64,000 bases of DNA, taken from a phage. Location of the stretch: sequence record PZ229304.1; one strand, 5' to 3'. A program made the position numbers and the translations under genes. The notes beneath the pieces were generated by a model, which worked only from the letters and a program-made list of their open reading frames with translations, searched no databases and was not told where the DNA came from. This document shows positions 3,836 to 63,281 of this stretch, piece after piece (the stretch's first letter is position 1; each line of letters begins with the position of its first letter).

Positions 3836-4327
3836 ATGAGGAACCGTATGGAACTTAATAAAGACACGCTTTGGGAACTCTATAAAACGTTCAGTGGAAC
3901 GAAAGAGAAAAAGCAAACCCAACAAAATTCCACTCCAGAAGAAACACCTGCTACTATCGTCAAACAAAATAAATTTGACGAAGAAAAAATGCAAGTGATT
4001 GAAGTGATGTATTGTCCACCAGAACACGATGACCTCCACGGTGAACGTATGTCTGAAATTGAAATCAGAAAGATGGTTGACAACTTCAACGCAAATATTA
4101 CTAACGTAAGTGGTAATCTTGGTCATATCAAAAACACCGATAAATTTAAACCAGTTAAGGCTTGGGTTAATGAAGTCGATTGTTATATTGGTGACGAGTT
4201 TGTTGTTGAAGGAACACCACTCGTTAAAATTCAATTCTATGATCCTGAACTGTATGAAGCAAGAAAGAACGGCGTTCTTAAAGGTTTAAGTATTGGTGCA
4301 GTAGGATGTAAAGTGAAGAAGGATTAA
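3836..4327 (+). CDS. head morphogenesis protein (possibly prohead protease or core protein)
   Basis: 163-aa ORF between portal and scaffold; no diagnostic motif identified. Confidence 0.3.
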   Translation: MRNRMELNKDTLWELYKTFSGTKEKKQTQQNSTPEETPATIVKQNKFDEEKMQVIEVMYCPPEHDDLHGERMSEIEIRKMVDNFNANITNVSGNLGHIKNTDKFKPVKAWVNEVDCYIGDEFVVEGTPLVKIQFYDPELYEARKNGVLKGLSIGAVGCKVKKD

Positions 4328-4329
4328 TT

Positions 4330-5445
4330 GTGGCACATACATATCTAGCTGACGTAGACTTTTCGGGTAAAGCTACGGAAGATTCTTGCGGAGCACACAT
4401 TGCTTACACCTTCGATTTTCAAGGTGGTGCTGCTTCTGGCTTTAATACCCCTCTACTTTTTAAATCTGGCGACAACCCAGACATTAGCTTCACTAAGTTA
4501 GAAGCTCTAGAAAAAATGGGTGAAGACGTTACTGAATTACGTAAATCATATATGAACCAACTTATGGGATCATTATCTGATGCCGTTCGTGAAAAATACG
4601 AGTCTGGTTGGGATTGGGTTTATGTAGTCGATGCCGATTTTGATAATGGCATTGTTATTTTCTGTTCTGACTACGGAATGTTCTCTACTGATTTTACCAT
4701 TAACGGACTTCTTGTTGAAGTTGGTGATGTTGCAAAACCAGTAGTACAAACAACGGACTATGAAGTAGTAGACGGTGATGTTTTAGTTTCCCTGGATTTC
4801 TTTGATAACTTGATTGATGATGCTCTAGGTGATTTAGTTAAGAGCGCAATTAAGTTTGATCACGTAAAAGATTATTTAGTAAAAGCTCACGAAGCTCGTA
4901 CTAATAAAGACTCTGTGATTGCAGAGGATAATCCAGCAGATCTTGAATCTGCAAACACAACCGATATAAATAAAGGAGATACCCCTTTGGAAAATATTAA
5001 CAAAGAAGAATTCCTGAAATCTGCTGAGGTGCAAGACCTTATTAAAGCACAGATTGCAGAAGCGGTAGAAAAAGCTGCTGCTGAAGCTCGTGCAGAGGCA
5101 GAAGCTAAAGCACAGGAAGAAATCAACAAAGCTAAGGCAGAAGCCGAGGAACTTCGTAAAGCAGAAATTGCTCGTATCGAAGAAGACTATACCAATGTAA
5201 TTAAGTCTTATGGCTATGTTGAAGAAGACAAAGTTGAAGCACTTGTTAAATACCTAGTAGATAACAAAGAAATTGCTGAAACTGTTGTTACCGCATTTGA
5301 AAAAGCTCGCGAAGAAGTTGAAACAGTTAAGAAAGAATTTGGCAAAGAAGTAGGTGTTGATGTTGAAAACAAAGAACCTGTTGCTAAATCTGCTTCTGAA
5401 CTGATTCGTCAAAAAGCTGCTGAACTTAAAAAAGCCCAGAAATAA
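4330..5445 (+). CDS. scaffolding protein
   Basis: 371 aa; C-terminal half is Ala/Glu/Lys-rich predicted coiled coil (AEAVEKAAAEARAEAEAKAQEE...); located between portal and major capsid genes. Confidence 0.5.
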   Translation: MAHTYLADVDFSGKATEDSCGAHIAYTFDFQGGAASGFNTPLLFKSGDNPDISFTKLEALEKMGEDVTELRKSYMNQLMGSLSDAVREKYESGWDWVYVVDADFDNGIVIFCSDYGMFSTDFTINGLLVEVGDVAKPVVQTTDYEVVDGDVLVSLDFFDNLIDDALGDLVKSAIKFDHVKDYLVKAHEARTNKDSVIAEDNPADLESANTTDINKGDTPLENINKEEFLKSAEVQDLIKAQIAEAVEKAAAEARAEAEAKAQEEINKAKAEAEELRKAEIARIEEDYTNVIKSYGYVEEDKVEALVKYLVDNKEIAETVVTAFEKAREEVETVKKEFGKEVGVDVENKEPVAKSASELIRQKAAELKKAQK

Positions 5446-41557: not shown

Positions 41558-44137
41558 TCAGTGACAAGACGCCCATGAGTTACCAACATCGTAACCAGCA
41601 GTTAGAGGTACATTAAGATTGTAATACTCACCAGCTTTATTAACAGCGATAGATGCTAATTCTCCAGCACGACTGTAGGCTGTAAACCAACCACCTTTAG
41701 GAGATTCATGTACGTTAGCCCAAATCTTGCCAGTACGTTTCTCTTCCTCTTCTTTCCAGGCGTTAACTTTATCCAAACATTCTTTATCAATTTTCTTTTG
41801 TTCTTCTGGATCATCAACTTGAGTCCAACCTAAAGATTCTTTAGAGAACCATTTAAAATGCACCAGATCACGAGTTACTTCAAGCTGCGCTTCATCGTGA
41901 TATGCAATCATTTGTTGAACGAATGACTTATTTTTCCAGTCATCAACAAAAAAGTCAACAGCTAATCCTTCTTCTTCGATAAGATCATCGTAGATAACCA
42001 TTGCTCTTTTTGCACAAATAACACCACCACTCTGGAACAGAGAGTTAAGTATTGCGTGTGCAGATCGTGTAGGTACTTTCCTACCATCAATACCAAGAAT
42101 GTATTTCTTACCTGTTTTAACCCAAAAATCATGCAGACGTTCTTTAAGAAGCGCAAGAGGTTTTGCAGCTTCCCAGAAAGCATCGTATACAAGCTGTCCT
42201 GTATACATATCACTACCAATGGTTTTTGCTACTTTTGCAGCTTGAGCACCATAAGTAATACCATACTTAACAGATTTAGCAGGGCTTCGTTCAAACTTAC
42301 GACCAATAGTATCAGAAATACGTCGAGCCATCATTGTATGAACATCATTAGGTTTTTCCAACAACAGAGCATTACAATATTCGTGTGGTTCCTGCTCGTA
42401 CCGCCAACAGTAGTGTGATTCTATTTTTGCCTCAAGAGAATCAAAGTCATAACCAATTTGGAAGTATTTTGGAACTTCTACACCAAATAAGTTACGCATT
42501 TCATATCCGTACAGAGATGTTACACGTGGGATATTTGCTACTAACCTATGTTTCATACGAGACGTAGCTGCATCACACGTTGCAGCAGGAGTTGGTATAC
42601 GACCATCAGCCCTTACTGCCGCCAGATAACCTTTATCGTAATCCTCTTCATCTTCTTCCCAATCAGCACCACCACCTAGAATAGAGTTTCTACGATGTTT
42701 ATACGTAAGATACTGCACAATCTGCGTAGCATAAGGAAACTTTTCACCTAGTGCTTCCAAGTTAGGACAAATATCCTTCTCTTGCCCTTTTGTAAAGGAA
42801 GGGTTAGTAAGCACTTTAACACCACGACCTTTAGCTTTAGCAATACGATCTCTTAGTTTCCATTCCAAAGTTTCTGGTGTGCACTCCAGATGATCACATC
42901 TATCCTGGCAGAAGTTAGATGCTAATGTTTGATCAACATAGTCACGAATAGCTTTCTCCATTTGTGCTTCATCTTTCTTAATCTTAGTGCCAGATTTAAG
43001 AGTGATATCTTTATCTTTATATTCAGATGGACTCCAACCTAAACCAACTAACCAATTTTTAATATGTGTCGTGTCGTCTAAAGTAGCAGGTACTGTAGGA
43101 TCACAAATAGGTTCTTCTGCTGGAATAGGGAGTTTAAACTCTTTACCTAATGCAAATAACCACCAACCATCTTCTTTTTGTACAAGTTCACCAGAATGTT
43201 TCTCTGCAAACTTTATCATGTTACTTGAAGGTTCACCATTCTTTTTAAACTGTAGTTTAGGTGGAATGAATGATTTCAAATAACCTTTAGTAGCAGGTTT
43301 AGGAGGTAGTACAGGTTCTGCCTCTAAACGACATGCTTCCATTCGAGCATCCAGATCACGAATATTATCTTCTGCTTGTTTCATATTGAAAGCAAAGCCA
43401 CGGTGCTCTTGACGTGTAATAATATCAGCTACACGTTGTTCTAAGTTAAATGGTTCAGACCACTTACTATAATCGCCCCACTCTTCCATCAAATAACGGA
43501 ACACTGCGGTGTTAGCTTTGTTATCGTAAATACAGTAATACAGCATATCTGCTGCAAATGTTCTAAATCTTTCAGTTTCAGGAATGTTTTTTCTGAAATC
43601 AATTTTAACATCCCCTCCAGCTTTCTTAGATAACTCTGCCAGACTATGACCACCGAAGCGATCAGGGTTTAGTGTCTTACTTAAGATCATAGTATCACAA
43701 ATTTCAATGTTACTATTACCCCAAGTATTGTACTTAATACTGTAGTTGAGTTTAAAAAATAATTTAATTGCCAGTAAGTCGAAGTTAATGATGTTGTGTC
43801 CAACTACTTTGGTAATTTTATAGTTTGAATTACCTTTAAATTTACCTGTTCCATTTACAAAATCAGGAAAATCTTTAAGAGGGAAATGGGTATATTCTAA
43901 ATGCTCATATTCCTCCAGTCGGTATTCATACTTTCCGTCAGTCTCAACATATGGACGACCATCGAAAAGATATTTATCACCATCATGGAAAGCAATAATC
44001 TCTCCAGTATCATGACTTTCGCACACAATACAGTGCATTGCAAAACTATCTTTTAAACGATATGGACTTGCCAAGTAATCTACACTTTCGTCATTAAGCA
44101 AGTTGTTACTTTCAATGTCGAAAGTAAAAGCTCCCAT
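41558..44137 (-). CDS. DNA polymerase, family A, with 3'-5' exonuclease domain
   Basis: 859 aa; N-terminal FDIESNN (Exo I, DxE); motif B-like RSPAKSVKYGITYGAQA; motif C-like IAYHDEAQLEV. Confidence 0.8.
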   Translation of the reverse strand: MGAFTFDIESNNLLNDESVDYLASPYRLKDSFAMHCIVCESHDTGEIIAFHDGDKYLFDGRPYVETDGKYEYRLEEYEHLEYTHFPLKDFPDFVNGTGKFKGNSNYKITKVVGHNIINFDLLAIKLFFKLNYSIKYNTWGNSNIEICDTMILSKTLNPDRFGGHSLAELSKKAGGDVKIDFRKNIPETERFRTFAADMLYYCIYDNKANTAVFRYLMEEWGDYSKWSEPFNLEQRVADIITRQEHRGFAFNMKQAEDNIRDLDARMEACRLEAEPVLPPKPATKGYLKSFIPPKLQFKKNGEPSSNMIKFAEKHSGELVQKEDGWWLFALGKEFKLPIPAEEPICDPTVPATLDDTTHIKNWLVGLGWSPSEYKDKDITLKSGTKIKKDEAQMEKAIRDYVDQTLASNFCQDRCDHLECTPETLEWKLRDRIAKAKGRGVKVLTNPSFTKGQEKDICPNLEALGEKFPYATQIVQYLTYKHRRNSILGGGADWEEDEEDYDKGYLAAVRADGRIPTPAATCDAATSRMKHRLVANIPRVTSLYGYEMRNLFGVEVPKYFQIGYDFDSLEAKIESHYCWRYEQEPHEYCNALLLEKPNDVHTMMARRISDTIGRKFERSPAKSVKYGITYGAQAAKVAKTIGSDMYTGQLVYDAFWEAAKPLALLKERLHDFWVKTGKKYILGIDGRKVPTRSAHAILNSLFQSGGVICAKRAMVIYDDLIEEEGLAVDFFVDDWKNKSFVQQMIAYHDEAQLEVTRDLVHFKWFSKESLGWTQVDDPEEQKKIDKECLDKVNAWKEEEEKRTGKIWANVHESPKGGWFTAYSRAGELASIAVNKAGEYYNLNVPLTAGYDVGNSWASCH

Positions 44138-57472: not shown

Positions 57473-58450
57473 TTAAGCAACAGCCTGGTCTTCTTTTTCA
57501 GGGAAGATTAAACTTGCAAGAACACCCAGCCCAAGAGTACCTAACACAATATACATACTGATCGTCGGGTCAATGTGTGCTGGCAGGAAACTCATTTTTG
57601 CGTGCAGAGTTTCTGCAAACGGATGATACATCAGTTTTACACCCACAAATACCAGGACTACGATAACTGCTTTCTCCAGATGAACCAAATATTTCAGTGC
57701 AACACTAAGAACAAAGAACAGAGCACGTAAACCTAAGATTGCACAGAGCATCGAAGAGAACACCAGCAGAGGTTCTTGTGTCACTGCAATTACTGCTGGA
57801 ACAGAGTCTACTGCAAAGATTACGTCAACCATTTCCATTACAAACACACAAACCAGAGCCGGAGTTGCTACACGAACACCATTTTTGATTGTGAAGAACT
57901 TCTCACCATCCATCTGATCAGATACAGGGAACAGCTTACGAACAATGCGAGTAGCCCAGTGTTTAGAGTAATCAACTTCTGCATCATTATCTCCAGCGAA
58001 TACCATTTTAGCCGCACAGAAAAGGATGACAGCACCGAAGAAGATATTAACATACCAGCCCAAACTCAACAAGTAAGTACCTACTGCTACAAACACACCT
58101 CGGAAGACAATCGCACCTGCAATACCCCAAAGTAGAATCTTGTGTTGCAAGTGTGTGCTTTTAATACCAAAACTTGCGAATACTGCCACAAATACTACTA
58201 AGTTATCTACAGAAAGAGATTTCTCCAACACATACCCACTCAAAAACAAGCTCGCAAAATCAGCACCGTGTTGGAAGTATACAAAACCATAGTAGGCTAA
58301 TGATACCCCAATCCAGAAAATTGACCAACCAATTGCAGATTTAAATGAAATTTCTTTGTTTTCTCTGTGTCCAAAGAAATCAATACAAATCGACAACACT
58401 AAAATACCCACTAAAACAACCACATCAATAATTGGGAAACCCAGTTGCAT
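57473..58450 (-). CDS. terC: TerC-family integral membrane protein
   Basis: 325 aa, multi-pass hydrophobic; duplicated signature SLSVDNLVVFVAVF and FAVDSVPAVIAV typical of TerC. Confidence 0.75.
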   Translation of the reverse strand: MQLGFPIIDVVVLVGILVLSICIDFFGHRENKEISFKSAIGWSIFWIGVSLAYYGFVYFQHGADFASLFLSGYVLEKSLSVDNLVVFVAVFASFGIKSTHLQHKILLWGIAGAIVFRGVFVAVGTYLLSLGWYVNIFFGAVILFCAAKMVFAGDNDAEVDYSKHWATRIVRKLFPVSDQMDGEKFFTIKNGVRVATPALVCVFVMEMVDVIFAVDSVPAVIAVTQEPLLVFSSMLCAILGLRALFFVLSVALKYLVHLEKAVIVVLVFVGVKLMYHPFAETLHAKMSFLPAHIDPTISMYIVLGTLGLGVLASLIFPEKEDQAVA

Positions 58451-58527
58451 TCTTTCCTCCTCTTTAATGCGGAGGACAATCCTCCGCTCTATGTCTTATA
58501 CTATAAACTGTTTTTAAAGAAAGTCAA

Positions 58528-58776
58528 CTAGTTCAGTTCTGTAATTTTAAGTTTATCTTCTTTGTTAATGATAGGGAAAGCTACAGCATCACCTACATCA
58601 TCAATAAAGCAAATAGCAAGACCACCTTCCACTTTGCTAACCTGACCGTTAAAGGCATGATACGGGGCAGGAACTTCATCCCCATCTTCAATGAGAATAG
58701 CCTCGTAAACCTTGCCGATAGTACAATCACGGGTGTTTATAAATTTTTCAAGCACTTCAACATTTACTTTACGCAT
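58528..58776 (-). CDS. hypothetical protein
   Basis: 82-aa ORF. Confidence 0.3.
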   Translation of the reverse strand: MRKVNVEVLEKFINTRDCTIGKVYEAILIEDGDEVPAPYHAFNGQVSKVEGGLAICFIDDVGDAVAFPIINKEDKLKITELN

Positions 58777-58790
58777 ATAAAGATCCTCTC

Positions 58791-58997
58791 TTATTTGTTA
58801 GATTGAAAGATACCACGAAGTACCGCAAGAATGAACGTCACACAGACTACACTCCAAAACGTTACAGGAACATGATGCCAGTCTAAGCCGATAATGTCAA
58901 TCATATAGTTGTATGCTAAAAGCAGTAACCAACTAGGGATTAACACAATCAAGAACACAACAATAAAACAACCTAATACTGCTAAAACACCTGCCAT
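58791..58997 (-). CDS. small membrane protein (hypothetical)
   Basis: 68 aa, two hydrophobic helices. Confidence 0.3.
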   Translation of the reverse strand: MAGVLAVLGCFIVVFLIVLIPSWLLLLAYNYMIDIIGLDWHHVPVTFWSVVCVTFILAVLRGIFQSNK

Positions 58998-59006
58998 ACT
59001 TTCTCC

Positions 59007-59722
59007 TTATTTCAGTTTGTAAACAATTACATTTAAACCTTTGTTCACTAGAGTTTCTTCGATCATAAGTTTTACAATATTCCAAGAACCTCCAGCCAAA
59101 CCACAACCAAGCATTGGTAAACCTACAATTTTACCGCCTGAAGATACAACATCGTCTCCCATACTATCTAACGCATTGTAGATAGCTTCATAATCCAGGT
59201 CACGCTTACCTTCCTCACGACGACTATAACCATATTGTCCATATAAATTATAAATTGTCAAATTGTTTTCTGTATACTTAGTAAACGTACCTAATTTTTT
59301 ATAATCACCACGTTTAGTGGCACAATCTGCTTTAAACGCACCAGGCCACTTGCTTTTAATTTTTGGTGCAATACCACTACCCATAGTGCAAAAACAGTTA
59401 CAGCAGTGTGCTATAGCGTCTATATCGCCTCTCTCGGCTGCTGCTAAAAGATCACCGTATACCTCAATGATACCTGCTGGATAACTTGTTACAATTTCAT
59501 CTTCCCAATACATTTTCTCTACACCACCGATCAGTGCAAAGTTTTGTGTAATGCGATCATCAATATAGTTAAGACCTGAAACATACACAGCATATTCATC
59601 CTGTGCTGTAATGCCTTGTACACGAATTCTTAAGACACCATCTTTATCTGTTGCTACGCGCCCAAAATCTTTTTCTGTAATATTGGTGATAGGATCTCCG
59701 AAAGTCATTACTTTATTAGACA
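59007..59722 (-). CDS. macro-domain-like protein (ADP-ribose binding / processing), putative
   Basis: Probable start is the MSNKVMTF Met. DAIAHCCNCFCTMGSGIAPKI and IVGLPMLGCGLAGGSW resemble the two Gly-rich macro-domain motifs. Confidence 0.4.
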
Positions 59723-60573
59723 TAATAATCCCCTTTAACATTAGATTTGTTGATAATGTTGCTTTCAAAAAATTGACGCAGGAAATCAAAGTTCTCTTTG
59801 TATTTTTCAATATTATTGTAACCTTCTGCAAGGCAACCAAAGAACAGTTGTTCTACATAATACAAAGGAAGTTGTGAAAGTGCAATTTTAAAATCAACTT
59901 CGCTTTGACTCATTAGATACTTAATAGGACGAACCAAACATTTAGCATCAGTTTCTTGCTTAATCATTTTAATAAAAGCTGCCAGGTTATTGATATAGTT
60001 GAAGTTAAGTGCAGCTTCGGTGTTGGCTTCTGTACCTTCATACTTTGCAAAGTACAGGAAAAACGTATCGTTTTCAACACCTTCTTTGTCTAAAATTTCA
60101 ATAAGTTTTTCTTCGTGTGTTCCTGTAATATTAACATCATCAATGAAAATCAGAGTTTTATTACCCCAGAAATCACGATTGATAGAGAAAGTGTCACCAT
60201 CGATCAAAGCCTTACGATCTTCTTTGCTAAGAAATCCATAATCATTGATATAACTCACTTTACGATGAACGATATCCCACTCCACTGCTTTACCTCCTTT
60301 GATAGAGATTAGGTAGTTGAGGTGATCTACAAAATGCTCAGATAACACTGTAGCTGCATTTTTCACATAATTATATGGAGATGGAATAACAACAAAACTT
60401 TCATTTACTAGTCGTTCTTCATATTTAGAAAAGAAACTTTCAGCCAGAATGCGTCCCATTCTTTTTGCTGCCTGGTTACTGCCAAACTTTAGTTTGGAAT
60501 AATCTGCAATGTTAAATTTTGCTTCCTTCAGGTTAGTAAAAGTATTAGCAAAATGTTGAATTTGATTACGCAT
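59716..60573 (-). CDS. phosphoribosyltransferase (type I PRTase fold)
   Basis: 285 aa; LIFIDDVNITGTH matches the PRPP-binding motif (hydrophobic-DD-x-x-TG-x-T). Confidence 0.55.
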   Translation of the reverse strand: MRNQIQHFANTFTNLKEAKFNIADYSKLKFGSNQAAKRMGRILAESFFSKYEERLVNESFVVIPSPYNYVKNAATVLSEHFVDHLNYLISIKGGKAVEWDIVHRKVSYINDYGFLSKEDRKALIDGDTFSINRDFWGNKTLIFIDDVNITGTHEEKLIEILDKEGVENDTFFLYFAKYEGTEANTEAALNFNYINNLAAFIKMIKQETDAKCLVRPIKYLMSQSEVDFKIALSQLPLYYVEQLFFGCLAEGYNNIEKYKENFDFLRQFFESNIINKSNVKGDYYV

Positions 60574-61222
60574 TAATAAGTTCCTCTTTTTTAAGTTTAG
60601 CCAACAAGTCTTCTGGATTAATAATATGACAGAACTTCATCCCTATGTCAACAGCTTTTCCATCATAAATCAAACTATCTCCAACGTGTAAAATCTCCTC
60701 TGGTGCGAGATCAAACGTTACCATTTCATCAAAAGAGAGTTTAAAAAACCTAGGATCTGGTTTACACAAGCAAAACTCGTCAGAAAAATGCATAAAGTCG
60801 AATGGTAATTTTGTTAAACCAGAATATACAGCTAAGAAACTACCTGGTACAAAATTAGTATTACTCTTAATACTCAAAGAGTAGGTTGAACTTAGCTCTT
60901 CCAACTTCTTGCAAAGTTCAGGATTCAATGTTGGAGGATGTTTTATAAACATTGCTAAACAGTCTCTTTTTAACCCATCCACTTTATCAAGATCAATATT
61001 CAAATGAGTAGAAAGTGTTTCCCAAGCATTCCTAGACGTTCCACAAATTCCTTTTTCTGCTTTTAAATCCAGGAGAGTTTTTACCTCTTTATATACGGTA
61101 GCTGCTTCTGCTTCAGAACAAGAGGCATACTCGGCAATAACCTTGTTGCGTTCTTCTGCATACAAAGGATTAGCAGTAATAAGAGTATTCCATACATCAA
61201 AAGAAATATGCTTAACAGTCAT
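60566..61222 (-). CDS. HAD-superfamily hydrolase (phosphatase-like)
   Basis: Motif I-like ISFDVWNTLI near N-terminus and motif IV-like VGDSLIYD; likely start at the MTVKHISF Met with GGAGG RBS. Confidence 0.5.
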   Translation of the reverse strand: MTVKHISFDVWNTLITANPLYAEERNKVIAEYASCSEAEAATVYKEVKTLLDLKAEKGICGTSRNAWETLSTHLNIDLDKVDGLKRDCLAMFIKHPPTLNPELCKKLEELSSTYSLSIKSNTNFVPGSFLAVYSGLTKLPFDFMHFSDEFCLCKPDPRFFKLSFDEMVTFDLAPEEILHVGDSLIYDGKAVDIGMKFCHIINPEDLLAKLKKEELINA

Positions 61223-61391
61223 TTTTAATCCTCCGTCCAAAAGAATATCATCTGCTTAATTTTATTGATCTCTTGATGTAGTAACTTTCCAGCATGTGAT
61301 TGATCTTTAATATTGACAGCAAGAATTTCAAGCTCCGTTAGTTTTTCCTGGATAGCTTTATATTCATCATCTGTAAGCATTTTCTTCCCCT

Positions 61392-61595
61392 TTAGAATGG
61401 TAATCTTTGTATGTCACTTATACCCACACCAAGAAGTCTAGCAATATCCTTATCTAAAAGCAACTCTTTTTGTTCTAAAATGTTAATCAGATCTCCTAAT
61501 ACTTCTTTAATATCACGATCATTTTTAGCAACGTGACCACCTGCGGTATCAACTTTATCTTTAAAAACAAAATAATGATCCATAATACCCTCCAT
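61392..61595 (-). CDS. hypothetical small protein
   Basis: 67-aa ORF. Confidence 0.3.
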   Translation of the reverse strand: MEGIMDHYFVFKDKVDTAGGHVAKNDRDIKEVLGDLINILEQKELLLDKDIARLLGVGISDIQRLPF

Positions 61596-61603
61596 ATAAA
61601 TAA

Positions 61604-61622
61604 AGGAGGCTTTCGCCTCCTT
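61604..61622. terminator. bidirectional hairpin terminator
   Basis: AAGGAGGC-TTTC-GCCTCCTT flanked by an A-run and a T-run. Confidence 0.5.
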
Positions 61623-61629
61623 TTATCAC

Positions 61630-62790
61630 TTAGTAAGAACGACCACCAAACACATACTCTGTGTAGTTTTTACGTTCTTTGTTTTTAATAACAACTTCAA
61701 TGTTGTTGCCTTTATCATCGGTGAACACAAAGTGATAACCGTCACCACCCATTGTACGGATGTGTTTTTCATCATACGTCAGCAAGATACGGTCTACACC
61801 CCAGTAGTAGTCACCTTCTTCGTCTTTATCTTCTACGGTAACTACTCCTTCCATTTCAGGAAGATGCTCTTCTCCTGACTTATGATCTACAGCTACAACA
61901 TAACGATTACCGCTAAACAAACCTTGTGCTGTCATACCGTCAATATCTGTATCTGACGAAACATCTCCTGTACGATCTACACCGTTAACTTTCAGAAGTT
62001 TAACTTCTTTTGCAGCATAGCGGTGTTCAGTGATACTGATACCCATTAATGCAAGTGCATCAGAGAATTTGTCATTAGGGTAACGGTTAAGTTCTTCTAC
62101 TAAGGACTGAACAATATCAAAGTTCAAATCCACGGAAAGATTATAAAGCGTTTCAAAATCTGGTAAAAAGGCTTTGTTCTCCAGATTTTTAGCCAGATAG
62201 TCATCCATAGTAGCTTTAGGTAGTTTCTTATAGCTAAAGCTGTAGAAAATACGGCTAGGACGATTACGCAAAAATTCTGATACATAACCATCATTTTTAG
62301 TCAATACAAACAGCTTGTCGTAGCCACCTACACCATCCAGCAGGGTAAGCAAACCATCTTGTGCATCTTTTTCAGCATACAGTTTATCAAATTCATCGAT
62401 CATAATCATCACAGGCTGTGTGATTTTAGACATAAAATTGATAAAGCCTTCACCATTAAAAGCACTACCGATAGAAATAGTAGGAATACCCATTTCACGA
62501 AGAGCAGAAGACAGCATTTTAGCTTGCAAAGTTTTACCGCTACCTTTCGTACCCTCAAGGAGAACGCCTGTGTTTTTACCTTTGCGGCTAAGGAACGTCT
62601 TGATAATACGTTCTGATTTATCATCAGTATCACCGTATGTTACTGAAGGGACTTCCATATCGTTTTTAGGATACAGGAAGAACTCGCCACTTTGAGTAAC
62701 ACCTACACCAAAAGTTCCTGCTGGAATTTCTTCAATATCTGTACCAGATTTCTGACGCAGGAAGATTTGATTGCCGAATACTGTAAACAT
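61630..62790 (-). CDS. P-loop ATPase (AAA-like) of unknown role
   Basis: 386 aa; Walker A GTKGSGKT; Walker B MIMIDEFDKL. Confidence 0.5.
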   Translation of the reverse strand: MFTVFGNQIFLRQKSGTDIEEIPAGTFGVGVTQSGEFFLYPKNDMEVPSVTYGDTDDKSERIIKTFLSRKGKNTGVLLEGTKGSGKTLQAKMLSSALREMGIPTISIGSAFNGEGFINFMSKITQPVMIMIDEFDKLYAEKDAQDGLLTLLDGVGGYDKLFVLTKNDGYVSEFLRNRPSRIFYSFSYKKLPKATMDDYLAKNLENKAFLPDFETLYNLSVDLNFDIVQSLVEELNRYPNDKFSDALALMGISITEHRYAAKEVKLLKVNGVDRTGDVSSDTDIDGMTAQGLFSGNRYVVAVDHKSGEEHLPEMEGVVTVEDKDEEGDYYWGVDRILLTYDEKHIRTMGGDGYHFVFTDDKGNNIEVVIKNKERKNYTEYVFGGRSY

Positions 62791-62810
62791 AGTTTTCTCC
62801 TCTATTTAAT

Positions 62811-63281
62811 TTAGTCAGATTCCCAAATGTTGTCTTTCTTAACCCACATTCGTTGATTATCTGAACCTCTATAACGTTTCGTTGTTGGTTGATTCATATC
62901 ATACTTACCATCTATCACTATGTCAACCAGTTTTTTAATTTTCTCTGGAATTTCTTCAAAAAGATATCCTGTATATAAGACAATATCTTTTTTGTTTCCA
63001 AAACAATCTCTTACCTTCTCAAGAACATACTCTACAGTGTCAATGTTCTCTTTGTCAAGAGGTTCACCACCTAAAACTGTTAATCCTTTAATGAAAGGTC
63101 GAGATAAATCTTCCAAGATAAGATCTAATGTTTCAGCAGTGAACTCTTGTCCGTAGTTATACGACCAGGCTTTCTGGTTAAAGCAGCCACGGCAACCGTG
63201 GCTACAACCGCTCACCCACAAAGAGCATCTTACACCGTCACCGTTGAGCATGTCAACAGGTTCATATCCGGCGTAATTCAA
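62811..63281 (-). CDS. nrdG: anaerobic ribonucleotide reductase activating protein (radical SAM)
   Basis: 156 aa; DGVRCSLWVSGCSHGCRGCFN carries the radical-SAM cysteine cluster; immediately downstream of nrdD. Confidence 0.7.
   Translation of the reverse strand: MNYAGYEPVDMLNGDGVRCSLWVSGCSHGCRGCFNQKAWSYNYGQEFTAETLDLILEDLSRPFIKGLTVLGGEPLDKENIDTVEYVLEKVRDCFGNKKDIVLYTGYLFEEIPEKIKKLVDIVIDGKYDMNQPTTKRYRGSDNQRMWVKKDNIWESD

Follow-up and report, generated by a model that had tools for sequence, protein, structure and literature searches.

The locus considered here raises the question of what a P-loop ATPase, encoded between nrdG and a module of Ter-type genes, contributes to the phage that carries it. 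The ATPase is encoded by an open reading frame at 61630..62790 (386 amino acids plus stop codon in the reading-frame list) of a 64,000-nucleotide stretch of phage DNA from record PZ229304.1, which as a whole is referred to as the window; the gene and all other features of the window whose positions are given below lie on its minus strand. An earlier note on this DNA, made from the sequence alone, had described an orphan P-loop ATPase with the Walker A motif GTKGSGKT and the Walker B motif MIMIDEFDKL. Both motifs are intact and reside at residues 80-87 and 128-137 of the 386-residue protein; the orphan status, in contrast, could not be upheld, as the protein is one of a large phage family and a paralog, Phi92_gp221, is encoded in the same type of genome. 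The gene is real and intact, as indicated by a match to PHROG 2376 ('ATPase') at E 2.3e-104, and the protein passes the gathering threshold of the Pfam AAA model PF00004 (29.4 bits, cut-off 21.2). Based on the evidence set out below, we lean, by a modest degree, towards the view that it is a ring-type protein unfoldase or remodeller of the classical AAA clade.

At 98-99% identity to phiWec187, Paula, Nernie and others, the window belongs with the phi92-like coliphages, which are assigned to the genus Justusliebigvirus within the subfamily Stephanstirmvirinae. The ATPase itself is identical to the phiWec187 protein, an identical protein is carried by 53 contigs, and it is the ortholog of Phi92_gp190, which is conserved at 98-100% identity among phi92-like phages. 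Database records name it 'ATPase', 'AAA family ATPase' or 'putative ATPase or Zn metalloprotease'. Thus, the protein is already annotated as an ATPase, and its family is already catalogued as PHROG 2376, although without a studied member: literature searches yielded no functional study of phi92 gp190, of PHROG 2376, of phage AAA+ unfoldases or of anti-defence AAA+ proteins.

Judged by its sequence, the protein is a classical-clade AAA+ ATPase. This assignment is based on an alignment of 33 homologs that are 28-75% identical to the window protein, all of which match PF00004 (best E 1.3e-10), and on a later set of 57 diverse representatives. The invariant positions of the family include G53, K86, D132, E133, F134, K136, D152, G153, N166, R177, P178, R180, Y183, D225 and N235. 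Within the Walker A motif (62530..62553), residues G80, G83, G85 and K86 are invariant in the 57 representatives, and the Walker B motif VMIMIDE (residues 127-133; 62392..62412) is accompanied by the invariant residues D132, E133, F134 and K136. The predicted pore loop 1, A-F-N-G at residues 110-113 (62452..62463), follows the family motif [PA]-[WFY]-x-G, with an aromatic residue in 52 of the 57 representatives and a glycine in 41 of them (F111 and G113 in the window protein). It aligns to the KWVG pore loop of fidgetin-like 1 and, in the structural model, which was predicted for the monomer using AlphaFold2 (AF2), it is located between a strand at residues 104-107 (strand 2) and a helix at residues 114-121 (helix 2). 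Sensor 1 and the second region of homology read T164-K-N166...N-R177-P-S-R180 (62251..62301), where N166, R177, P178 and R180 are invariant in the 57 representatives and the N-R-P-(S/G)-R segment corresponds in the alignment to the RPGR arginine fingers of Cdc48/p97. Further family motifs are an N-linker Y-G-(D/E) at residues 52-54, an LLTLLDG helix and the sensor-1 pattern T-x-N, and, as far as the equivalence can be drawn by eye, the lid motif (N/S)-F224-D225 is found in the place where other clades have the sensor-2 arginine.

The cellular proteins that resemble the family are in line with this assignment. The family profile matches Cdc48/p97/VAT, Rix7/NVL, AFG2 and Pex1 at E 3e-12 to 1e-6, and the best matches in fold and sequence are Bcs1, Cdc48/p97, NVL, Trip13 and FtsH; these matches span the ATPase module only, which is about 200-250 residues. 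With the Cdc48-type proteins, AFG2 and Pex1 included, the phage protein shares Walker A and B, the LLxxxDG helix, the sensor-1 asparagine, the RPxR fingers and an aromatic pore loop 1. However, whereas those proteins possess tandem AAA modules and large N domains with a double-psi barrel, the phage protein has a single AAA module, an N domain of 55 residues and a shortened pore-loop-2 region.

The model suggests that the AAA module is embedded in a protein of three domains and a tail. The first 55 residues (62626..62790) form a beta-rich domain with five strands between residues 2 and 41, predicted at a per-residue confidence (pLDDT) of 86-96, and carry a conserved LPAG(T/N)Y motif in which P23 and Y27 are nearly invariant. 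A profile of this domain matched PDB sequences only at the level of noise (E of at least 0.7); the domain is presumed to bind the substrate or an adaptor. It is followed by the AAA+ alpha/beta core at residues 56-187 (62230..62625), which is entered through the N-linker, and by an alpha-helical lid at residues 188-250 (62041..62229; model helices between 192 and 248) with the motifs (N/S)-F-D and VEELNRY, where F224, D225, E233 and N235 are invariant or nearly so. Residues 251-374 (61669..62040) are predicted to form a second beta-rich domain (model strands between 261 and 370, pLDDT mostly 61-92), the sequence of which is poorly conserved, varies by lineage and can barely be aligned. Nevertheless, models of phage proteins in BFVD match over about 400 columns with TM scores of 0.6-0.7; they come from Erwinia, Salmonella, Proteus, Agrobacterium, Lactobacillus and uncultured phages, and all of them are uncharacterised proteins. 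As these matches span the full three-domain build despite the poor alignment of the C-terminal part, this build is a trait of the family. A crAss-like homolog of 259 amino acids lacks the C-terminal domain.

The protein ends in a tail at residues 375-386 (61633..61668; ...NYTEYVFGGRSY) which is predicted to be disordered, with pLDDT values below 50 at residues 375-379 and 382-386, and which closes on an aromatic motif. A pattern of hydrophobic-x-x-hydrophobic-[FWY], located 0-5 residues from the C-terminus, is present in nearly all homologs: the window protein ends in ...YVFGGRSY, other homologs end in ...SSVF, ...FRVW or ...TMFDGK, and in one large environmental lineage the tail ends exactly in ...Y-x-Y-[WYF]-D-A-F. 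A conserved aromatic end on a tail that is flexible in the model suggests that this element might serve as a docking peptide. Among the longest homologs, no informative domain fusions were found.

The family is large and essentially restricted to phages. Among 1.84 billion representative proteins, 3,240 clusters formed at 50% identity match it at E<=1e-30, and the count rises to 7,066 with the cut-off relaxed to E<=1e-3; in a phage collection, it occurs in 300-400 records. Carriers include Stephanstirmvirinae, jumbo phages of the Eneladusvirus type and GAP32, Salmonella phage 7-11, Aeromonas phage LAh_8 and Acinetobacter and Proteus phages, but also phages of Bacillus, Enterococcus, Staphylococcus, Lactococcus and Lactobacillus, crAss-like phages, Microbacterium phage Pumpernickel, Herelleviridae and many environmental phages. 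In contrast, genomes of bacteria and archaea, one for each of 185,579 species, yielded only 18 loci, nearly all on metagenome-assembled contigs, hence the conclusion that the family is essentially phage-restricted; it is found almost only in big virulent phages. The phi92-like phages encode the paralog Phi92_gp221 outside the window (375 amino acids, tail ...ATLASVF; positions 42035-43162 in phage Paula, LR865361.1), where it adjoins an endonuclease with a CapR/T5orf172 domain, and of the two copies it is this one that phAPEC8-like phages share. Within the window, tblastn and a family-profile scan of the open reading frames in all six frames revealed no paralog of the ATPase.

Two observations on database entries concern the same gene and region. 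In the phi92-like Escherichia phage JLBYU50 (OK272470.1), the ATPase aligns over residues 1-310 only, at 99.7% identity, so that this copy may carry a C-terminal truncation or a frameshift. If real, this would hint that phages grown in culture can do without the C-terminal domain, or without the gene altogether; alternatively, it reflects a sequencing error. Furthermore, four records labelled 'Campylobacter phage' with the host C. jejuni (MG065639, MG065645, MG065656 and MG065689) are about 98% identical to the E. coli phi92-like region and may be mislabelled or contaminated.

The following mechanism might be envisioned by analogy to what is established for the classical AAA clade, on which the proposals of a ring, of threading, of domain roles at either terminus and of the expression timing are based. 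The subunits, probably six of them, would form a ring that hydrolyses ATP at the subunit interfaces using R177 and R180. The aromatic pore loop with F111 would grip a protein substrate and pull it into or through the central channel, so that the target, a single protein or a complex, would be unfolded, extracted or taken apart. The choice of the substrate or of an adaptor would fall to the small beta domain at the N-terminus, while the C-terminal domain with its aromatic tail would attach the ring to a partner or make it more stable. Candidates for the target are a host protein, an immune complex, a replication factor or an intermediate of phage assembly. The ATPase would be expressed along with an early/middle block for nucleotide metabolism and replication, on transcripts that run through from nrdD-nrdG, with an internal promoter as a possible second source, and its transcription would end at the hairpin just downstream of the gene.

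The gene order and expression signals bear on the last of these steps. On the minus strand, nrdD and nrdG are followed by the ATPase gene, two small open reading frames of 67 and 51 amino acids, a HAD hydrolase, a PRTase_3 (ComF-like) protein and a macro-domain protein, and after the latter by two further small open reading frames (68 and 82 amino acids), TerC and then more Ter-type genes. The position between nrdG and a Ter-type module (HAD, PRTase_3, Macro, TerC), as given in the earlier note, agrees with the Pfam assignments. The same note had placed terminator-like hairpins on both sides of the gene, which holds for the 3' side only. Directly 3' of the ATPase stop codon, a terminator scan identified a GC-rich hairpin with a U-rich tail (AAAGGAGGC-GAAA-GCCTCCTTT; 61602..61623), with a stability of about -17 to -20 kcal/mol according to RNAfold. 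This intrinsic terminator is annotated on both strands in the phage Paula record (terminators 025/026), and as it is A-rich on one side and T-rich on the other, it may terminate transcription in both directions, antisense transcription included. On the 5' side, only 20 nucleotides separate the stop codon of nrdG (62811-63281, identified by Pfam Fer4_12/Radical_SAM) from the start of the ATPase gene, and this gap contains nothing but the ribosome-binding site, GAGGAG, read from the sequence 7 nucleotides before the ATG (62798..62803). The nearest upstream hairpin lies within nrdG itself (62864..62815), is imperfect (-12.8 kcal/mol) and has no U-run. With a terminator on its 3' side only, the gene is not insulated from nrdD-nrdG and probably shares their transcript. 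A candidate sigma-70-like promoter, TTGACA-17-TATGAT, within nrdG and 108 nucleotides upstream of the ATG (62898..62926; 11 of 12 matches in a promoter scan) could add independent expression of the ATPase; promoter-like sites are not enriched in the region, with 28 found where shuffled sequences give 22.2 +/- 3.6. The ATPase gene shares its direction with a UvrD-like helicase, nrdDG, a T7-like primase/helicase and a PolA polymerase, while the structural genes are oriented opposite, and from this orientation an early/middle timing of expression is inferred.

A functional tie to nrdD and nrdG was considered and rejected, as the pair is missing beside the ATPase gene in 74%-identical relatives, which are Klebsiella phages; HAD, PRTase_3, Macro and TerC are kept there. 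In the window, these four genes, together with two small open reading frames, span 57473-61240 and constitute the phage-borne 'nucleoside-like metabolite' arm of Ter systems. The macro-domain open reading frame (59007-59840) has a TTG start and shares about 125 nucleotides with the end of the PRTase_3 gene; its true start is probably an internal codon, since annotated records give a shorter gene (717-735 nucleotides). The two small open reading frames between the terminator and the HAD gene, at 61392-61595 (67 amino acids) and 61225-61380 (51 amino acids), have no Pfam match, and the former is labelled 'putative gene/transcriptional regulator' in phage Paula (Phi92_gp189). On a Logan contig (locus L012, SRR25685058_68648), a distant homolog of the ATPase, 42% identical over the best-aligned stretch, is followed by radical-SAM genes, TerC and TerB. 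According to this gene order, the neighbourhood of ATPase and Ter genes recurs outside the phi92 group, possibly by shared ancestry of large myoviruses.

The preferred reading as an unfoldase or remodeller has to be weighed against assignments to better-known AAA machines. Among them is an ATP-dependent protease. Outside the window, the phi92-like genomes encode a proteasome/HslV-like peptidase, Phi92_gp058 (PF00227, E 1.6e-5; positions 4237-4890 in phage Paula, LR865361.1), and no AAA+ partner was found for phage proteasome homologs by Fuchs et al. 2021 (PMC8665760). The ATPase might be the unfoldase partner of this peptidase, docked to it through the tail so that the two form a phage ATP-dependent protease, and the peptidase and two ATPase paralogs are indeed encoded together by all Stephanstirmvirinae. 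Moreover, proteasomes are usually activated by AAA rings of the classical clade, and such rings dock through elements like the disordered tail with its conserved aromatic motif. As in HslU, PAN, Mpa and Rpt, the flexible C-terminal tail of the phage protein carries conserved hydrophobic or aromatic residues while an HslV-like peptidase is present in the same genome. However, some 53 kb separate the genes for peptidase and ATPase in phage Paula, and the ATPase occurs without a detectable peptidase in Lactobacillus, Lactococcus, Bacillus, Staphylococcus, crAss-like and jumbo phages. Conversely, Aeromonas phage 4L372D has two HslV-family peptidases and no member of the ATPase family in any frame, its annotated 'ATPase' 078 being AAA_5/MoxR-like. 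By record counts, the peptidase was present in 172 (Stephanstirmvirinae, Aeromonas, Vibrio, Shewanella and Caulobacter) and the ATPase in 303, many of the latter being Gram-positive, crAss-like or jumbo phages in which no peptidase was detected. In addition, the tail does not match the HbYX motif, as the protein ends in R-S-Y with the tyrosine last instead of penultimate, and the tails across the family (...GGRSY, ...DAF, ...SVF, ...RVW, ...MFDGK) are aromatic without matching this pattern. The protein also differs from HslU by the absence of an I-domain and from PAN and Mpa by the absence of a coiled-coil/OB domain. A general partnership of ATPase and peptidase was therefore rejected, since the distributions overlap in the Stephanstirmvirinae only and the pairing fails in 4L372D, and we regard a protease formed with Phi92_gp058 as very unlikely; as a lineage-specific possibility, the ATPase or its paralog gp221 may be the missing AAA+ partner of the phage proteasome homologs. 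Iyer et al. 2021 (PMC7824862) proposed that the 'BCS1 orthologs' of jumbo phages translocate or chaperone folded proteins while virions are being assembled. Bcs1, the mitochondrial AAA translocase of the folded Rieske protein, is among the best matches of the phage protein, yet the identity amounts to 15-20% and Bcs1 is found outside the top 60 sequence-profile matches. The Bcs1 N-terminal-domain model is not among the Pfam families listed at E<=1, and in place of the membrane anchor of Bcs1, none being evident here, the first 55 residues form a soluble five-strand beta domain in the model; the phage protein further has the extra C-terminal beta domain and the tail. Orthology to Bcs1 is thus not supported by the N-terminal-domain model or the profile ranking, and a Bcs1-like role in virion assembly appears decidedly improbable. 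The record name 'ATPase or Zn metalloprotease' originates from the AAA module of FtsH, but an FtsH-like Zn metalloprotease was rejected: the M41 peptidase model is not among the Pfam families listed at E<=1, the protein sequence contains no HExxH motif, no transmembrane segment is evident in the model, and the beta-rich C-terminal domain takes the place of M41 there. The second half of the name is therefore unsupported, as there is no peptidase domain. To Trip13/Pch2 of type III CBASS, a remodeller of HORMA proteins, the identity is 14% and the likeness is confined to the generic AAA fold, with neither HORMA nor CdnC in the context.

Within the unfoldase reading itself, two more specific roles can be considered, of which one is at the replisome. 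Its substrates might be proteins located on DNA or at the phage replisome, which the ATPase would load, recycle or strip in a manner likened to p97 or FIGNL1 acting on chromatin-bound proteins. Homologs, confirmed as members of the family, reside in replication modules of crAss-like cr273_1 (between primase and exonuclease), Staphylococcus phage CF9 (after helicase, primase, RNase H and RecJ) and Acinetobacter phage YMC13/03/R2096 (directly after primase/helicase and PolA). The aromatic tail, moreover, recalls the docking tails of replication proteins. The statement of the earlier note that there is no recognisable replication context is correct locally, but the same co-directional block of the window holds the UvrD-like helicase, nrdDG, the primase/helicase and PolA. 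Against this role, a replication context is missing in many lineages, and the adjacency of nrdDG is lost in the 74%-identical Klebsiella-phage relatives. AAA proteins of the classical clade, moreover, have proteins and not nucleic acids as their substrates, so that a direct loader role is unlikely; taken together, a replication-associated remodeller is unlikely. Far less probable, to the point of being extremely improbable, is that the protein acts as a clamp loader or as a loader of the replicative helicase. It shares the AAA+ P-loop fold with T4 gp44-type clamp loaders and DnaC-DnaI, and some of its homologs are found in replication modules as well, but these loaders belong to another AAA+ clade and the matches to them are weak and generic: none of the 33 family members matches the clamp-loader, DnaC/IstB or DnaA models of Pfam, the clamp-loader family PHROG 168 is matched at E 4e-5 as compared to 2e-104 for the own family, and the NCBIfam helicase loader model PRK08116 scores 16.5 bits where the cut-off is 189. 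The SRC motif is not present, the region of sensor 1 and the second region of homology reading TKN...NRPSR as in the classical AAA type. In the phi92-like phage Paula, the replisome of which consists of a T7-like primase/helicase and PolA, the annotation of positions 1 to 117,000 lists no sliding clamp. A loader was rejected on the scores, the motifs and the lack of an annotated clamp gene. Thus, the clear loader homology that would have spoken against the earlier note was not found. The other role, which the earlier note had raised as defence or anti-defence, is that of a motor in counter-defence or host takeover that unfolds or disassembles a host immune or stress complex, e.g., an oligomeric effector depleting NAD+ or ADP-ribosylating its targets, alongside phage genes for NAD+ salvage, macro-domain and rII proteins. 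In a survey of 80 IMG/VR loci, in which open reading frames were called, neighbours clustered and the commonest clusters annotated, no single conserved partner gene emerged across the ATPase loci. The most frequent neighbours were rIIA/rIIB (16-17 loci), a macro-domain protein (14), Nampt (14) and Nmnat-Nudix (9), with smaller groups of WYL_2, GDSL, CMD and Band-7/SPFH. Pairs of rIIA-rIIB flank the homolog in 16 loci, and in at least eight loci Nampt lies directly upstream and co-directional at a gap of 74-94 nucleotides, with differing outer flanks (the Nampt loci are L035, L039-L041, L069, L072, L080, L084, L086, L088 and L092, usually with Nmnat-Nudix and often with a macro-domain gene). 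After dereplication at 70% identity, Nampt occurs within 6 kb in 9 of 34 ATPase clusters, a macro-domain gene in 10 and rIIA/rIIB in 7-8, and at least one of the three in 17. Nampt and Nmnat constitute the published NARP2 counter-defence pathway (bioRxiv 10.1101/2024.02.11.579819). Similar company is found in Salmonella phage 7-11 (ribose-phosphate pyrophosphokinase and a Nampt-like gene 3-5 kb from the homolog), on a jumbo-phage contig (NAPRTase and Acb1 upstream) and in Microbacterium phage Pumpernickel (a tRNA cluster, an ADP-ribosyltransferase and RtcB); on a contig binned to the Eubacteriales, Nmnat lies upstream and rIIA downstream, and in the window HAD, PRTase_3, Macro and TerC follow the gene. 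However, this is guilt by association: most of these loci come from one broad environmental lineage (pairwise ATPase identity 51-100%), unrelated accessory genes cluster in large phages anyway, and the crAss-like, Staphylococcus and Acinetobacter homologs reside in replication modules instead. In addition, the defence models of PADLOC-DB gave no significant match (best mad8 at E 0.0014, 16 bits, followed by SspF at E 0.012, each a generic P-loop similarity), and the terms 'ATPase' and 'AAA' do not occur in the NARP1/NARP2 preprint (10.1101/2024.02.11.579819) or in the NARP3 paper. An anti-defence role of the window ATPase is thus plausible but unproven, and we regard a counter-defence or takeover motor as possible, though on balance not likely. 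The bolder proposal for the family as a whole, that it represents a counter-immunity motor, an AAA+ unfoldase which actively dismantles oligomeric host immune effectors such as NAD+-depleting or ADP-ribosylating assemblies, is quite unlikely; if true, the ATP-driven 'disassemblase' would be a type not seen before among anti-defence proteins.

The putative unfoldase or remodeller encoded in the window belongs to one of the larger phage protein families without a studied member, and few phage-encoded protein-remodelling motors have been characterised so far. The interest of the family rests on its size, the conserved tail motif and the recurrent counter-defence neighbours, all of which can be tested in the model phage BASEL Bas61 (bas61_0073), where the recurring NAD+-salvage, macro-domain and rII neighbours provide a concrete hypothesis. 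If the protein is a general housekeeping chaperone, the finding would be an ordinary one. The identity of its substrate would reveal what large virulent phages must unfold or dismantle during infection.

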